From a virus (Duplodnaviria > Caudoviricetes): a stretch of DNA of 64,000 nt. Below the pieces are notes generated by a model. That model did not search any database and was not told the origin of the DNA. It worked only from the letters and a program-made list of their open reading frames with translations. Each line of letters begins with the position of its first letter. Positions within the stretch are counted from its first letter, which is position 1. The stretch covers positions 2,809-66,808 of the IMG/VR virus record IMGVR_UViG_2974753753_000001. The stretch is one strand, 5' to 3'. The position numbers and the translations under genes are program-made. Positions 48,229-54,033 of this stretch are shown one piece after another.

Positions 48229-49008
48229 CTACTCCGAGCCGACGGCGTTCGACGACTCGATGATCTTCGTGATGTCGGCAAGCCCCTTGCCGACGGTCCG
48301 GCGGCCGAGAGCGTCGAAACGGTCCTTGGCCATCCACTTCTTGTTGGGCTGCCACTCGATGACGCGCATCGTCTGGACACCCTTGGTCGTCTTGACGGCG
48401 TCCATGTGCATGTAGCCGACCATGTGCATCTGAGCGGCGATCCAGTTCGCGACCTTGCCGTCGCGACCGTGGAAGTTCGGCATCCGCAGGCCCGGGTCGT
48501 CCTCGGCGAACATGGCGTGCGCGGTCCAGCAGACGTTCACCGGCAGGTCGTTGACCAGGGTGACATAGCGCATGAGGCGCATCTGCTCCTCGCCGTACTC
48601 CTGGAGTTCGACCTTGTCGGGGTTGCGCTCGTCGTCGGCTTCGACGTCAGCGTCGACGATGTCTCGGCGGATGTCGAGCTGAAGCTGTGTCCCGGTGTCG
48701 ATGCAGAGCCAGTCGAACGGGAACTTCTCGTCCCGGGTGGCGTCTTCGAGCCAGTTGTAGGCCTCCAGGAAGTTCGACCACTTCGGGCAGCGCCAGACCT
48801 TCGAGTTGCCCGGGGCCTTCTTCGCTGAGATAGTGCCGTTTTCGATGCCGAGGATCAGCGCCCGCTTCGCGCTGCCGAGGAAGCGGGTCTTGCCAATCCC
48901 GGGGTCCCCGTACAGCAGCATCGTGATGTTCTCGGTGTACTCCTGGATGTCGACGATGTCGTCGGGGAGATCGAACCCCTTCAGATCGTCAGCAGTCGCC
49001 GTGGCCAT
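48229..49008 (-). CDS. AAA_24/Sak4-like ATPase (recombinase-like)
   Basis: LLYGDPGIGKT, IDT, WTAH, AKDR. Confidence 0.85.
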   Translation of the reverse strand: MATATADDLKGFDLPDDIVDIQEYTENITMLLYGDPGIGKTRFLGSAKRALILGIENGTISAKKAPGNSKVWRCPKWSNFLEAYNWLEDATRDEKFPFDWLCIDTGTQLQLDIRRDIVDADVEADDERNPDKVELQEYGEEQMRLMRYVTLVNDLPVNVCWTAHAMFAEDDPGLRMPNFHGRDGKVANWIAAQMHMVGYMHMDAVKTTKGVQTMRVIEWQPNKKWMAKDRFDALGRRTVGKGLADITKIIESSNAVGSE

Positions 49009-49058: not shown

Positions 49059-50250
49059 TCAGAAGTCGCCGCGGCGTTCTTCTCGGTGAGCTTCGTAGGG
49101 GTCGCGCACGTGGTAGGCGACGGATTTGAGCAGCTCGGTGTCGCCGTCCTGCTCGTCGGCCAGGCACAGGTCGTAGAAGTCGCAGTCCCACGTACAGTCG
49201 CGCGTCGGGTTCTTGTACAGCGGCAACAGGCCCTCGCGCATGGCGTTCATCGTCTGGATCTCGTCGGCGATGTGCTGGATCTGCTTCCGGCGCTCCTTCG
49301 AGGTCCGGTAGACCGGCTCCCGGTGGAATCGCGGGCTCGGCTGCTTGTTCGAGACGTCGCCGAGCACCGTGAGTCCGTGCTCGTCGGCCTCCTCGATGAG
49401 ATCGGGCAGCTTCGACTTCTGAAGCTCCTTCTCCATCTCCGGCCCGATCGTCTCGACCCAGAGCTTCTCGCCCGATGCGGCCACCTCGCGCTTGGCGTAG
49501 AACTCCATCAGCGCGGCGACGTAGTGCTTCTTCGTCGGCTTGTTCGTCGCCCGACCCTGCTCGTCGACCGGCCGCTCATCCGGCGGGGCTTTCATCAGGA
49601 AGTTGTAGAGAATCCCCGACAGCCGCTCCCGGCCGGTGATGACCCCCTGGCGACGCAGGACGTTGTCGGCGACGGCCCAGTACCCGCCAGCCTGGTCGTC
49701 GAGCGGGAGGTGGTTGGTCTTGATCGAACGGGCCGTCTTGTGGTCCCAGAGCCAGATCTTGCCGGTGCCGAGGTTGCGCGCAACGATGTCGAAGGTGCCA
49801 TGGAACTTGGCCACCGGCGTGCGGTCGGCCGAGTTCCGCGGGATGCGGACACCGAAGGGCTGCTCAGGGGAGAGCACCTCCCACTCCTCGTCCTGGCCGA
49901 ACTCGACGAGGTAGTTCTCCAGCATCGCCTCGCCGACGGCTTCGGCGTCGAGCACGACGTGCTCCTGGTCGGGGTAGAGCGAGCCGGACATGATCTCGAC
50001 CCGGACCAGCTCCATGACCCCCTGGCAATACTCCTTCCACGTCTCGATCGGATCGCGACCGCGGGTGGTGCCCGGGATGTACCAGTGCTCGAAGGCCAGA
50101 TGGATGCCGGTTCCGAACCACAGCGGGAGCTTCTTCCGATTCGACTCCAGACCCTCTCGCCAGGCCCACCACCAACGTTGCGGATCTCGGGCACCGCTTG
50201 AAATCCTTCCGCTCGGAGCCGCGGAGCAGAGGAAGATCAGACGATGCCAT
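49059..50250 (-). CDS. Cas4-like PD-(D/E)XK exonuclease with a 7-nt coding gap after codon 21
   Basis: GGAGGTGA RBS plus ATG50250 gives MASSDLPLLRGSERKDFKRCP; the frame then changes to QRWWWAWREGL...GTFD..DHKT..QAGGY..CTWDCDFYDLC. Confidence 0.85.
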
Positions 50251-50740
50251 TTAGATCACCTCCGTCCGTCACATGAGACCAGTCCTTGCCGGTCTTGATC
50301 CTGCTGATGGTCACCTGGTGGACTCCGTAATCGAGAGCGATGACCCTCTGGGCCTCGCCGTTTTTCAGCCGCCGTCGGATGACGGGGATGTCTTGCTCTG
50401 TGAGCTTCGCCAACCCGTGAGAAGAACCGAGGTGCCGATAGCTTCGAAGACGATCTCCTTGGTTGTCGTAGCGCATGTGACACGACCTGCACCGCGGCGA
50501 GTAGTCCTCATAGACGTCCAGACCGGTAGATCCGGACACCTGCGACCAGTCGACGGCCGGACCTCCGCAGTCGACGCAAGGGAACTGCGAAGCGGACCCC
50601 CGAGCTGCCCGAAGTCGCTGATGCCGAGCCGAGTAACTGGCCCGGCTTCCGGTCCAGTTGTGATGACCGTCCTCGCCAAGCACCCCTCTCGGCCGAGCCT
50701 TGCGCTCGGAACCGCGTAGAAGAGGCAAGTCAGTCGTCAT
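50237..50740 (-). mobile_element. Free-standing HNH-type homing endonuclease gene inserted at the start of the exonuclease gene
   Basis: CVDCG..DW..PRCRSCHMRYD plus C-terminal HTH (AKLTEQD..IALDYGVHQVTISRIKTGKDW); N-terminus duplicates that of the exonuclease; atypical codons. Confidence 0.75.
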
Positions 50741-51065
50741 CGTTCACAAGCCAGGTCTCGACCACGATCATCACGATGCGGTCCTTGTTCAGCGCGAACA
50801 CGGTCCCCTTTTCGCCGGAGTTCCCCTCGGCGATCGGGCCGATGTTGTACCAGTCATCGTCCTTGGTGGTTCCGTCGACCTTCAGCGGGAGGACGTAGAG
50901 AAGACCCGGGACCGGGGTCCGCGGCTCCACCTCGTGCCCGATGACCTTGAAATGGTGTCCTCCGACACCGTTTTCGACGGTGACGGTTGAGAGGAGCGGC
51001 GAGACCCGGCCGATCAAGCCGGTGCTCCACTCCTGAACGCGGGGAGACAGGGACTTTTTGCCCAT
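50730..51065 (-). CDS. Hypothetical protein
   Basis: GAAAGGA RBS before ATG51065. Confidence 0.65.
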   Translation of the reverse strand: MGKKSLSPRVQEWSTGLIGRVSPLLSTVTVENGVGGHHFKVIGHEVEPRTPVPGLLYVLPLKVDGTTKDDDWYNIGPIAEGNSGEKGTVFALNKDRIVMIVVETWLVNDDD

Positions 51066-51102
51066 GTTAGTTTTCCTTTCCACAGCAGCGTCGTCGACGG
51101 TA

Positions 51103-51979: not shown

Positions 51980-54033
51980 GCGGCCTTCTCTCGGGCGATG
52001 GGGGTGAGCAGCGAGCGCACGAAGTTGACGCCGCGCTGCCCGTCGATGATGAGCTTGGTCAGGCGCTCGCGGCCGCCGGAGACGAACGCGATGTTCTCCT
52101 CGACGGTCTCCAGCGTGCGGAGGTAGTGGATCGTGACCTGGTGTAGCCGGGAGACGCGGTGAATCCGGTCCTCCACCTGCTCCTGGTCGTCGGGAATCCA
52201 GGTCTCGTCGAGGAACACCAGGTCGTCGGCCGCGTCGAGGGTCAGCGACACACCACCGGCGTTGGTGTTGAGCAGGAACACCCGGGGGCCTCCGGCCTCC
52301 TGCCAGCGGTCCTTGTTCTCCTTCCGCTGGCTCTGCTTCACCCCGCCGGTGATCTTCAGGACCGGGATGCCGAGCTTCACCAGCTCGCGCTCGTACATGT
52401 CGAGGATCGCGGTGAACTGGCTGGCCACGACGACCTTGCGCTCCTGGCCTTCCTCGTCGGGTTCCATCGAGGTGTGCCGGTTGATCCCGAGGCCGTCGAG
52501 GAACTCGACCAGCCAGTCGAACTTCACCGACGGCATCTTCGGCAGGAAGCGGTAGGCCTCTTCACCCTCGGCGTCGAGGTAGGTCTCGACGTCGCCGTGG
52601 CAGATCGCAAACTGCTTCAGTCGGACCAGCTCGGCGAGCACGCCGTTGGCGGTCAGCACGCCGGACTCCAGGATCGTCTCGGCCTCGTCGCGGATCTCGG
52701 CGTAGGCCTTCGCCTGCTTCGGGCTCATCGTGAGCCAGTGGCCGATTGGGCTGTGCTCGTCGGTGGTGCCGTCGTCGTAGGGCAGCGCGGTCCCGGCGTA
52801 GAGCTTCGGCGGGAGTTCCGGGTAGACCTCGGCCTTCGTGCGGCGCAGCATGATCGGCGCGATGTCCTCGTAGAACATCTTCACCTTCGTCTCGTCGAGA
52901 CCGGCGATCTCCATTTTCGACTTCTGGCCCTTGATGTCGCCGAGCACGTGGAACCACTGCTGAGCCCAGGACCAGTAGGCGTGGTACTTGTCCGGGTAGA
53001 GCCAGTTCAGGGTGCCCCAGAGGTTCTCCGGCTTCCCGCGGAACGGCGTCCCCGAGAGCGCGATCTTCAGGCCGTGCTCGGCGACCGGGATCATGCCCGC
53101 ACCGGCGCGCACCTGGGTCTGGCTCTGGGGAGTCGCGGAGTGGCAGATCATGAACCGGTGGCTCTCGTCGGCGACGAACGCGCTCCACTCCCGCTCAAAG
53201 AGCGCGGGGTACTTGCGATCCCACCAGCCGGGCTCCTTGAACATGCCCATCTTGCCGGTGCGCTTGTGCTTGCGCCGGACCAGGCTCGGTTTGACCCACT
53301 CGGCGCGAAGCATCTCGATGTTCACGATGACCCACCGGCGGCGGTCGCCCGGCGGAGGGCCGAGCCGGTCGAGGATGTTCCGGCGCGCGGGCCCGGTCCC
53401 CATGACCGTGACGACCTCGTCGCCGGGCACCCAGGCCTCCAGCTCGTCGGGCCAGGTGGTTGCCACGGCGGCCGAGGGAGCCGCGACAAGGATGTCGCCG
53501 ACGATCCCCGAGCTGATCACCGCGCCGAGGGTCTGGAGCGTCTTGCCCAGGCCCGGCTGGTCGGCCAGGAGCCCGCGGCGGGTGTGGGTGAGGAAGGCGA
53601 TCCCGGCGCGCTGGTATGCGCGGGCCAGCTCGGCGATCTTCGGTGCGTGCTCGGCGACGGCCGGATCTAGTTCGGCGTCGCTGCTCGCGCTGGAGAAGTT
53701 CTTGATGTTCCCGAGCCGGTCGCTCTCCTCCCACGACCACTCGATGAGACCCTCGGATGTCAGCAGGTTGTCGCCGAAGACTCGGCGCAGCTCCTTGCAG
53801 TTCGTCAGGGTCAGCGGGAGAGAGCCACCACCGGCGTCGACACCGACAGCCCCAAGCTCTTTCAGCAGCTCACGGTATCGCTTGCTTCGAGCGGTGCCGG
53901 TCGGCCACCAGACGTCGATGGTGGAAGCGGAAGTGTCGTCATCGGCGAGTTCGACCCAGACGTGTCCGTCTCGCAGAGCGGCGATTCGCTCGGCGGCTGC
54001 TGGACTGTCGGATTCGAGTTCGATGGCTCCCAC
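51976..54033 (-). CDS. SNF2-family DNA helicase
   Basis: LADQPGLGKT, DESH, SGTP, GGVSLTL, QVEDRIHR; start GTG54033 with GGGGAG RBS. Confidence 0.9.
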   Translation of the reverse strand: MGAIELESDSPAAAERIAALRDGHVWVELADDDTSASTIDVWWPTGTARSKRYRELLKELGAVGVDAGGGSLPLTLTNCKELRRVFGDNLLTSEGLIEWSWEESDRLGNIKNFSSASSDAELDPAVAEHAPKIAELARAYQRAGIAFLTHTRRGLLADQPGLGKTLQTLGAVISSGIVGDILVAAPSAAVATTWPDELEAWVPGDEVVTVMGTGPARRNILDRLGPPPGDRRRWVIVNIEMLRAEWVKPSLVRRKHKRTGKMGMFKEPGWWDRKYPALFEREWSAFVADESHRFMICHSATPQSQTQVRAGAGMIPVAEHGLKIALSGTPFRGKPENLWGTLNWLYPDKYHAYWSWAQQWFHVLGDIKGQKSKMEIAGLDETKVKMFYEDIAPIMLRRTKAEVYPELPPKLYAGTALPYDDGTTDEHSPIGHWLTMSPKQAKAYAEIRDEAETILESGVLTANGVLAELVRLKQFAICHGDVETYLDAEGEEAYRFLPKMPSVKFDWLVEFLDGLGINRHTSMEPDEEGQERKVVVASQFTAILDMYERELVKLGIPVLKITGGVKQSQRKENKDRWQEAGGPRVFLLNTNAGGVSLTLDAADDLVFLDETWIPDDQEQVEDRIHRVSRLHQVTIHYLRTLETVEENIAFVSGGRERLTKLIIDGQRGVNFVRSLLTPIAREKAA

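Follow-up and report, generated by a model that had tools for sequence, protein, structure and literature searches.

This work addresses a nuclease gene of a tailed phage that is split near its start by an insert of seven bases, together with the mobile cassette to which the insert belongs. The gene lies on the minus strand of a stretch of 64,000 bases (the window), which comes from the 66,808-base genome of IMG/VR record IMGVR_UViG_2974753753_000001. A 2-kb query matched 53 phage records, all of them Gordonia phages, with GTE5 as the closest at 92.0% identity. An earlier note on this DNA had proposed that ribosomes bypass the seven bases, in the context CCG-AGAT-CCG, and the locus is compared here with its relatives. 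The comparison points to translation across the insert, and a hop of the peptidyl-tRNA from one CCG to the next may be the way in which this is achieved.

The locus and the split gene

Along the minus strand, the locus opens with an upstream gene of 117 amino acids (aa; 50730..51083, family phrog_13499), whose stop overlaps the start of the next open reading frame (ORF) by 11 bases. The same 11-base overlap is present in phages free of the cassette, where it joins the upstream gene to the start of the nuclease, the layout seen in Flapper. The next ORF in the window, 167 aa long (50237..50740) and called here the HNH-like ORF, has a zinc-finger-like core of the pattern CxxC...CxxCH and a C-terminal helix-turn-helix. 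Its head is a first copy of the nuclease N-terminus, MTTDLPLLRGSERK (50699..50740), which is the original start of the resident gene in an in-frame fusion. In the phages that carry the cassette, the original start and first 14 codons of the nuclease now head the HNH-like ORF, and the nuclease has obtained a new ribosome-binding site (RBS) and ATG, behind which its first 21 codons are present a second time. The cassette extends approximately over 50181..50697 and comprises the body of the HNH-like ORF, the new RBS, the recoded N-terminal copy and the insert.

The new start codon, ATG50250, opens eleven bases ahead of the stop of the HNH-like ORF and follows a Shine-Dalgarno (SD)-like GGAGGTGA (50256..50263); the other carriers have GGGGGTGA or GGAGGTGA at this place. 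Frame A, read from this ATG, gives the second copy MASSDLPLLRGSERKDFKRCP, 21 codons (50188..50250) that include an invariant Cys. It ends with the CCG of Pro21 (50188..50190), the proposed take-off codon and the last codon with frame-A constraint. The gap of AGA plus U follows (50184..50187), with AGA at 50187-50185 and therefore in the A site when CCG occupies the P site, and then comes the proposed landing codon, a second CCG (50181..50183), which belongs to frame B and adjoins the resume codon CAA (50180-50178). Frame B, the +1 frame, encodes the body of a predicted Cas4-family PD-(D/E)XK nuclease, QRWWW...RGDF* (49059..50180; 373 codons and a stop), and carries the C-terminal Cys triad CTWDCDFYDLC (49164..49196). 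Skipping the seven bases would join 21 and 373 codons into a protein of 394 aa. Without recoding, the product is a 128-aa frame-A ORF (49864..50250) with an unconserved tail, and this ORF measures 128, 141, 79, 102 and 102 aa in the five carriers.

Frame B of the window is free of ATG, GTG and TTG from its upstream stop (50258-50256) as far as ATG50015, and in three of the five carriers (window, GTE5 and HubbaBubba) it lacks a canonical start up to codon +55/56. The earlier note had described the arrangement accurately: the SD ahead of ATG50250, the first 21 codons in one frame with QRWWWAWREGL in another, the start-free stretch of the second frame, the positions of CCG (50190-50188), AGA (50187-50185), U (50184) and CCG (50183-50181), and the count of 394 aa were each recovered. 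It did not recognise the resident start at the head of the HNH-like ORF, the recoded second copy behind ATG50250, or the horizontal movement of the unit and its parallel with the T4 MobA/gene 60 cassette. The split is also evident with one intact homologue, P0018, in a tblastn search against the window. Its residues 1-14 match 50740-50699 at 92.9% in one frame, a second frame matches residues 2-33 from 50244 on, and residues 18-393 match 50189-49062 in a third frame at 98.9% identity; the same search found no second nuclease copy in the window.

The insert and the cassette in related phages

The start of the nuclease gene was aligned in 19 alleles, namely the window and 18 fetched phage loci. 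The identical seven bases are present in five of them: the window, GTE5, HubbaBubba, Float294 and Skysand. The other 14 alleles are insert-free; TGC CCG (CCA in one) is followed directly by CAA or CAG, giving the continuous ...DFKRCPQRWWW..., which is exactly the junction CP|QRWWW that the earlier note had obtained by deleting the seven bases. An extra ORF stands between the upstream gene and the nuclease in every carrier and in none of the 14 others. The expected co-occurrence of insert and HNH gene is thus borne out, with the insert in 5/5 alleles that have the HNH-like gene or its remnant and in 0/14 without. The window, GTE5 and HubbaBubba have the HNH-like ORF at full length. Float294 and Skysand have lost an internal part of it, and their remnant counts 52 residues starting with the Lys at the left junction; both keep the insert. 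The carriers fall into three lineages, Gruunavirus, Skysandvirus and HubbaBubba, the last with a Sukkupivirus-like backbone. About 30 bases (29 to 30) around the site are nearly identical in the 14 cassette-free alleles. Further carriers were sought by the exact DNA pattern, with 0 matches in viral, genome and metagenome contigs, and through the frame-A 128-aa ORF as a protein, with none among 738 candidates.

In the deposited annotations, the nuclease is 318 aa long in GTE5 (locus L001, 1386-2342) and 326 aa in HubbaBubba (L005, 1318-2298), and in Float294 (L006, 789-1952) and Skysand (L007, 1698-2861) it is given 387 aa from a frame-B GTG inside the N-terminal copy. No frame change is recorded in these four annotations, and the HNH-like ORF is a "hypothetical protein" in all of them. 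In practical terms, four deposited genomes carry an annotation that truncates or mis-starts the nuclease.

The cassette has spread horizontally among Gordonia phages. GTE5 and HubbaBubba agree in 473 of 500 columns across the cassette (94.6%), as against 101 of 250 columns upstream (40%) and 245 of 350 in the nuclease body (70%), and the block of high identity starts at the ...GAGCGCAAGG junction and stops a few bases past the landing CCG. The insert, at the conserved Cys-Pro|Gln-Arg, follows the junction of the large insertion at a distance of 20 bases. Set against cassette-free Flapper, the second N-terminal copy has six third-position differences between Asp and Pro, all synonymous. The cassette is also old: the HNH-like allele of the window differs from the other two at a synonymous divergence (dS) of 0.86-1.07, and the ratio of non-synonymous to synonymous divergence (dN/dS) of this ORF, 0.04-0.09, indicates purifying selection.

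The cassette of the window is itself a mosaic. Its part at 50407-50697 on the minus strand, which covers most of the HNH-like ORF, shows strong divergence from GTE5, at 33-44 matching columns per bin of 50, and over the whole HNH-like ORF dS against GTE5 is 0.86. In the part at 50181-50406, the bins at 50357 and 50307, which hold the 3' end of the ORF, match GTE5 in 48 and 44 of 50 columns, and the second N-terminal copy is nearly or fully identical to that of GTE5.

Loci related to the HNH-like protein in metagenomes number 17, all of them distant (31-58% identity over parts of the protein). The metagenome proteins P0004, P0007 and P0009 of this family also start with nuclease-derived residues, which suggests that relatives of the element occupy the same place in other phages. 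In P0007 and P0009, which are 65% and 56% identical to the HNH-like protein, the nuclease-derived N-terminus is longer, reaching ...SERKAFKRC... and ...TERKDFKR..., respectively, so that the fusion point of these elements would lie at or beside the Cys-Pro site.

Selection changes frame at the insert

Because the second N-terminal copy is confined to the cassette, the differences between its alleles postdate the formation of the cassette. There are three such alleles: window (identical to GTE5), HubbaBubba and Float294 (identical to Skysand). Between the window and HubbaBubba, synonymous and non-synonymous changes stand at 6:3 in frame A, 2:7 in frame B and 0:9 in the third frame; between the window and Float294 at 5:0, 0:5 and 0:5; and between HubbaBubba and Float294 at 9:3, 2:10 and 0:12. 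Derived by hand from these pairwise counts, there were about 13 events in the copy, 10 synonymous and 3 non-synonymous in frame A, and neutral change would give at least 10 synonymous events in 13 with a probability of 3.5e-4 to 1e-3. The three non-synonymous changes fall at residues 3, 4 and 8, which vary in cassette-free phages as well, and one of them, Leu8Met, is present in the cassette-free RedRaider and Fury.

Past the insert the constraint is on frame B. The resume codons vary synonymously in that frame (CAA CGT, CAA CGC and CAG AGG), and over the first 55 frame-B codons, which end at the first frame-B start of the window, the synonymous to non-synonymous counts are 10:0 for window and GTE5, 9:0 for window and Flapper, 6:0 for Float294 and Patio, 2:0 for HubbaBubba and Marietta, and 6:0 for HubbaBubba and BiPauneto. 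With frame-A constraint before and frame-B constraint after, the change of frame falls within the 16 bases CGG TGC CCG AGA TCC G. The internal frame-B Met is unconserved, being Met in the window, Arg in HubbaBubba and Thr in Float294. The nuclease body is open in all five carriers (373 or 380 codons), with dN/dS of 0.02-0.04 in close pairs. In Float294 and Skysand the HNH-like ORF has decayed to one and the same remnant, and their nuclease bodies differ by 13 synonymous and 0 non-synonymous changes, all in codons 203-372, with the caveat that these lie downstream of possible internal starts.

These comparative data favour translation across the insert. The earlier note had gone further, to a candidate bypass; what stands of this is one nuclease gene split by the insert and the case for reading across it, be it by a hop or by a +1 shift.

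The nuclease and its conserved residues

Several lines of comparison bear on the identity of the enzyme. The +1 read-through product, 396 aa, matches the exonuclease family phrog_1218 over residues 4-395 with an expectation value (E) of 1.7e-133, and the intact Flapper protein matches PF12705 (E 5e-13). The hop product matches the intact Flapper enzyme, and its +1 surrogate P0002 is 98% identical to Flapper. By structure, the model of an intact homologue reaches a predicted local distance difference test (pLDDT) score of 89, with means of 92-94 for residues 11-30, and its Foldseek matches are AdnAB entries, chain A (2.8e-5), ACE1 of the Cas4 family (8.9e-4), Exo5, AddAB and the Cas4 protein SSO0001, at modest TM-scores of at most 0.45 by query length. 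By sequence, the intact nuclease gave chance-level matches only against solved structures. The gene product is, as predicted from sequence and model, a Cas4-family or RecB-like PD-(D/E)XK nuclease with a putative iron-sulfur cluster.

An alignment of 38 homologues, down to 44% identity, places strictly conserved residues on both sides of the insert. In the first 20 residues R9, S11, E12, R13, R18 and C19 are invariant in 38/38; between the insert and ATG50015 the invariant residues are W23, W41, F42, G43, H47, Y54, G57, R60 and G61; and C349, C353 and C359 of the C-terminal triad are invariant in 38/38. The pattern of one N-terminal Cys and three C-terminal Cys (CTWDCDFYDLC), to which the earlier note had drawn attention, is therefore fully conserved. 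The annotated 318-aa ORF of GTE5 would lack all of the invariant residues before the equivalent of ATG50015.

Downstream of the nuclease lies a 259-aa ORF (48229-49008, minus strand), the positional counterpart of an ORF that in the relatives is annotated as a Sak4-like single-stranded DNA annealing protein or RecA-like recombinase. Since this Sak4/RecA-like ORF directly follows the nuclease, the cassette would sit inside a phage recombination module, which we infer to be formed by the two proteins. Homing needs a recombination module, and this would explain why the cassette preserves the nuclease gene.

The HNH-like ORF

That the HNH-like ORF encodes an HNH endonuclease is weakly supported. 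Its best family is phrog_4160, of unknown function, and the PHROG families called HNH endonuclease match only its C-terminal helix-turn-helix. Distant relatives at 28-36% identity carry PF13392, and many tblastn matches, at 34-40% identity, are to genes annotated as HNH endonuclease. The lone alignment with a solved HNH structure, Cas5-HNH, is weak (E 0.11) and sets the VQH of that chain, whose His we take to be the catalytic one, opposite VDW of the query, a motif in which the Trp is invariant in 8 close homologues. The structural model is of low confidence (mean pLDDT 57); its best Foldseek match is again Cas5-HNH, at E 0.016, and no match was found at E 0.001 or better.

A candidate hop from CCG to CCG

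The best explanation for the locus is probably recoding, judging from the selection pattern and the conserved residues. As to its form, we give about an even chance to a mobile cassette with an insert that ribosomes cross by a hop of peptidyl-tRNA-Pro from CCG to CCG, with a 394-aa enzyme as the product. Should recoding take place, the hop would be clearly the likelier mode compared with a +1 shift. The cassette is inserted in the 5' end of the gene for the Cas4-family recombination nuclease, such that the HNH-like ORF takes over the start and 14 codons of the nuclease, and the nuclease restarts from the new RBS and ATG. Ribosomes would start at ATG50250, translate 21 codons and stall while the rare AGA waits in the A site and CCG, paired with peptidyl-tRNA-Pro, occupies the P site. 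This tRNA would then release and re-pair with the next CCG, seven bases downstream, and decoding would restart at CAA to yield a 394-aa protein with the wild-type CPQRWWW junction. By analogy with MobA of phage T4, the insert would also break the target of the cassette's own endonuclease, so that carriers are spared cutting.

The matched take-off and landing CCG codons are present in 5/5 carriers, and re-pairing on the landing CCG retains three G:C pairs. The codon AGA is rare in the window, as the earlier note had claimed, with 20 occurrences in 14,549 codons of 47 crude ORFs (1.4 per 1000, 1.9% of Arg codons), which makes it the fifth-rarest sense codon. Searches of the window and of the full 66,808-base genome found no tRNA genes. 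A simple hungry-codon hop is favoured by the matched CCG codons, the wild-type junction, the rare AGA and the finding of no helper signal. A stimulatory structure, an SD in the gap or a nascent-peptide signal of the gene 60 type was not found at the site; such signals define the efficient class of bypassing, not hops in general. That the output of the nuclease might be tied to the supply of tRNA-Arg(UCU), as has been suggested, is pure speculation. As for its role, the insert is most likely a self-protection of the cassette, by analogy with T4. Strict linkage of insert and cassette, a transferred block that ends at the insert, and the near-identity of the site of about 30 bases in the 14 cassette-free alleles all fit with self-protection.

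Several points weigh against the hop. Its efficiency may be low, because a gap of this size leaves no room for a structure and the nascent chain counts just 21 residues. Folding of the sequence around the site has no advantage over shuffles (z 0.34; 128 of 200 shuffles fold at least as well), and the alignment fold has one compensatory pair among 47. A predicted hairpin at 50181-50270 of the minus strand, in which the SD/AUG region and codons 1-5 pair with codons 17-21 and the insert (GAUCU with GAGAU, GGCAUCG with CGGUGCC), was dropped as evidence for stimulation on account of this shuffle-level energy and near absence of covariation. The recoding product is a prediction from sequence comparison, which places the shift in 16 bases and fits a hop and a +1 shift alike. 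The translations of the window itself, with or without the N-terminus, have no Pfam match.

On the evolutionary side, the nuclease body of the window is nearer to cassette-free Flapper (dS 0.196) than to GTE5 (dS 0.238), and much of the divergence of the nuclease body may predate each invasion. With a mobile cassette and a body nearer to Flapper, the body counts by themselves are no proof of selection after insertion. The statistics of the N-terminal copy rest on about 13 substitutions, since the independent cassette alleles are only three. In Float294 and Skysand, two synonymous frame-A changes have created a GTG in frame B, 13 codons ahead of the landing codon. Finally, the HNH-like ORF of the window has no Pfam or NCBIfam HNH match, and its endonuclease activity is putative only.

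Two side observations concern the insert site. The 10-mer CCGAGATCCG occurs in four minus-strand copies (58464, 57947, 52700 and 50190), where base composition predicts 0.13. At 52700 the 10-mer reads as an ordinary in-frame Ala-Glu-Ile-Arg in a helicase-like gene, and the excess is probably an effect of codon usage. The second concerns P0031, a European Nucleotide Archive (ENA) metagenome protein of 378 aa with seven member sequences, which is a nuclease ORF of 71% identity starting MPETQTRWWW. When it is back-translated, AGA again comes directly after the Cys-Pro codons, and an insert of about 8 bases would be needed by reckoning, so P0031 may represent a second kind of insert at the same site. 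A search for its DNA gave 0 pattern matches, and the closest phage record is 73.8% identical.

Alternative explanations

The rival that survives best, fairly unlikely as it is, involves no recoding at all. The cassette would have damaged the gene, and the phage would live without the enzyme or make do with a shortened one, begun at an internal start and lacking the N-terminus; that both frames look intact would be owed to recent homing into functional genes and to exchange with intact alleles by recombination. The annotated genes of 318 aa in GTE5 and 326 aa in HubbaBubba agree with truncation, as do three more N-terminally short family ORFs in metagenomes (P0031, P0033 and P0092). Each invasion may be young, because the cassette moves horizontally, and the nuclease body of the window is indeed closer to a cassette-free phage than to GTE5. 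It is also known that homing elements do their hosts mild harm, a point raised for MobA in 10.1101/2022.08.31.505936. Yet frame-A constraint of 10:3 in an N-terminal copy found only in the cassette would be pointless for a 128-aa junk product, and the cassette is old by the dS of its HNH-like ORF (0.86-1.07) while both frames are open in every carrier. Float294 and Skysand have only the decayed remnant but still differ 13:0 in favour of synonymous changes. An internal start is likewise a poor substitute: it is unconserved (M/R/T), a product from ATG50015 would miss at least 14 invariant residues, and the window offers no second nuclease copy.

A +1 frameshift at CCG-AGA-U in the style of Ty3 is unlikely, and it accepts recoding in another form. 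Either the next aminoacyl-tRNA would read GAU out of frame during the wait of AGA for its rare tRNA, or AGA would be read and U skipped, and the product would have two extra residues, CP-DP-QRWWW or CP-RP-QRWWW. Such a shift makes the same frame change as the hop at the same rare A-site AGA, the selection data fit it equally well, and the +1 reading is open for 396 aa and matches phrog_1218 at the E of 1.7e-133 given above. A similar context, XCG-AGN-U, is used by Ty3, whose shift at GCG-AGU-U involves no slippage. The pairing and the signals speak less well for it: tRNA-Pro on CCG keeps one of three pairs on the +1 codon CGA, a re-pairing that a shift of the Ty3 kind would not need, and the closest SD-like motif, AAGGA, ends 13 bases before the P-site codon, as compared with a spacing of 3 bases in prfB. 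The shift would also add residues at a junction that is free of insertions in 14/14 cassette-free alleles and in the seven full-length database homologues inspected, and it leaves the duplicated CCG unexplained. A published test on the actinophage Hau3 favoured bypass over a +1 shift, according to the results given in PMC10732093.

Unusual initiation in frame B upstream of the insert is very unlikely. It would use the GTG of Float294 and Skysand or a near-cognate CTG, ATC or ATT, and the nuclease would then begin with an unrelated peptide and lack the N-terminal Cys. Ahead of the landing codon, all five carriers have 24 open codons in frame B, with GTG in 2/5 and near-cognate codons in 5/5, but no SD-like motif precedes these codons in the sequence inspected. 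Moreover, only 2 of the frame-B changes between cassette alleles are synonymous, and the product would be without six invariant residues, C19 among them.

Removal of the seven bases before translation, by RNA excision or editing or through a subpopulation of insert-free DNA, is scarcely credible. The 3-base direct repeat CCG that flanks the insert could in principle allow rare slippage deletion, but the insert is in all four deposited carrier genomes, and the site has no homopolymer run for transcriptional slippage, which is rejected on that ground. We know of no RNA processing system for 7-base gaps in bacteria. An intron or intein is rejected as well, as seven bases are too short and splicing elements are absent, and read-through from the HNH-like ORF fails in that this ORF is in the third frame and ends at 50237. 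A sequencing or assembly error is refuted: besides the window, four genomes deposited separately, by different laboratories and in different years, have the identical seven bases. In a public read run, a lone 187-base contig spans 49926-50108, short of the insert site.

Significance

With these alternatives weighed, the hop from CCG to CCG can be placed in a wider frame. We tentatively regard the locus, at a little under an even chance, as an independently evolved counterpart of the T4 MobA/gene 60 system, in which the cassette would protect itself by a 7-base insert that is crossed by a bare hop at a hungry AGA. Natural bypassing is known from very few systems, and the gene 60 case with all of its relatives is one homologous element. 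What would be new here is the combination of a MobA-type cassette with a short rare-codon bypass, in a new gene and a new host group and in an apparently unrelated element. If true, a second unrelated cassette with the same logic would mean convergent evolution, and a hop would need little beyond matched codons and a hungry codon. A saving insert with hopping would then be a general and easily evolved route for homing elements into essential coding sequence, and more cases would be hidden among "truncated" genes beside free-standing endonuclease genes. The carrier phages and their cassette-free relatives grow on laboratory strains of Gordonia terrae according to their records; the idea is thus directly testable, and its interest is high for that. 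A literature search at title and abstract level found, among the papers listed, no published description of the Gordonia phage site.

Comparison with known systems

The closest known parallel is the T4 MobA/gene 60 cassette, for which Bonocora et al. 2011 is reportedly the cited source. In both, an endonuclease-type gene and a frame-breaking insert are inherited as one mobile unit in a conserved host gene. According to the account of Manning and Atkins (2022, 10.1101/2022.08.31.505936), the bypass insert protects against MobA and outlives it, and some variants use a hungry AGG. On that account the likeness extends further: the unit carries its own diverged copy of the flanking host coding sequence, the insert is kept after decay of the endonuclease, as in Float294 and Skysand, and the candidate site shares matched take-off and landing codons and a slow A-site codon. 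The bypass insert of T4 is found 20 bases past the nick site, and the distance is again 20 bases from the junction of the large insertion to the 7-base insert here.

The two systems differ in other respects. The gap is 50 bases in T4 and 7 here, and no take-off hairpin, gap SD or long nascent-peptide signal such as those of gene 60 was found at this site. The host gene is a topoisomerase in T4, whereas here it is a predicted Cas4-family nuclease, which is not split into two proteins, and the T4-like phages are myophages while these are Gordonia siphophages. No relationship between the HNH-like protein and MobA turned up in the searches, which included no comparison aimed at MobA or gene 60.

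The Streptomyces phage Hau3 provides the second parallel. In the terminase genes of Hau3 and of two Streptomyces prophages, gaps of 7 and 10 bases follow a rare UUA, and a junction peptide was found by mass spectrometry, as reported in the results of Antonov et al. (2023, PMC10732093). Both cases concern actinobacterial phages or prophages, with a gap of 7 to 10 bases after a very rare codon at a highly conserved junction, and in both, going by that report, there are intact homologues without the gap and a frameshift would add residues at the invariant junction. The rare codon is the bldA-dependent UUA in Hau3 and AGA here, and for this reason no developmental switch is implied in the Gordonia phages. 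Here the gap is tied to a mobile endonuclease-like cassette, while the words "homing" and "HNH" are absent from the main text on Hau3 (PMC10732093). The reported case has the support of mass spectrometry, unlike the present site, which is known from sequence.

Hops of a simpler kind are described in Escherichia coli constructs, where non-programmed hopping occurs at hungry or stop codons, in the account given by Atkins et al. (2016, PMC5009743). There, as proposed here, the peptidyl-tRNA re-pairs at a nearby matching codon next to a slow A site, with no elaborate signal. The hops of that account are synthetic or induced by starvation and occur at a low level, while the present arrangement is natural, is kept in five phages and is apparently required for a conserved enzyme.

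Finally, MobE in nrdA of phage Aeh1 is presented as a split-gene insertion by a free-standing homing endonuclease (10.1101/2022.08.31.505936). As outlined there, a free-standing endonuclease gene within a host ORF supplies new translation signals and the function of the host gene survives, a design that the Gordonia cassette would share. The two solutions part at the last step: in Aeh1 two chains are made that assemble, whereas in the Gordonia phages the downstream part is start-less, and a change of frame would be needed to make the enzyme.

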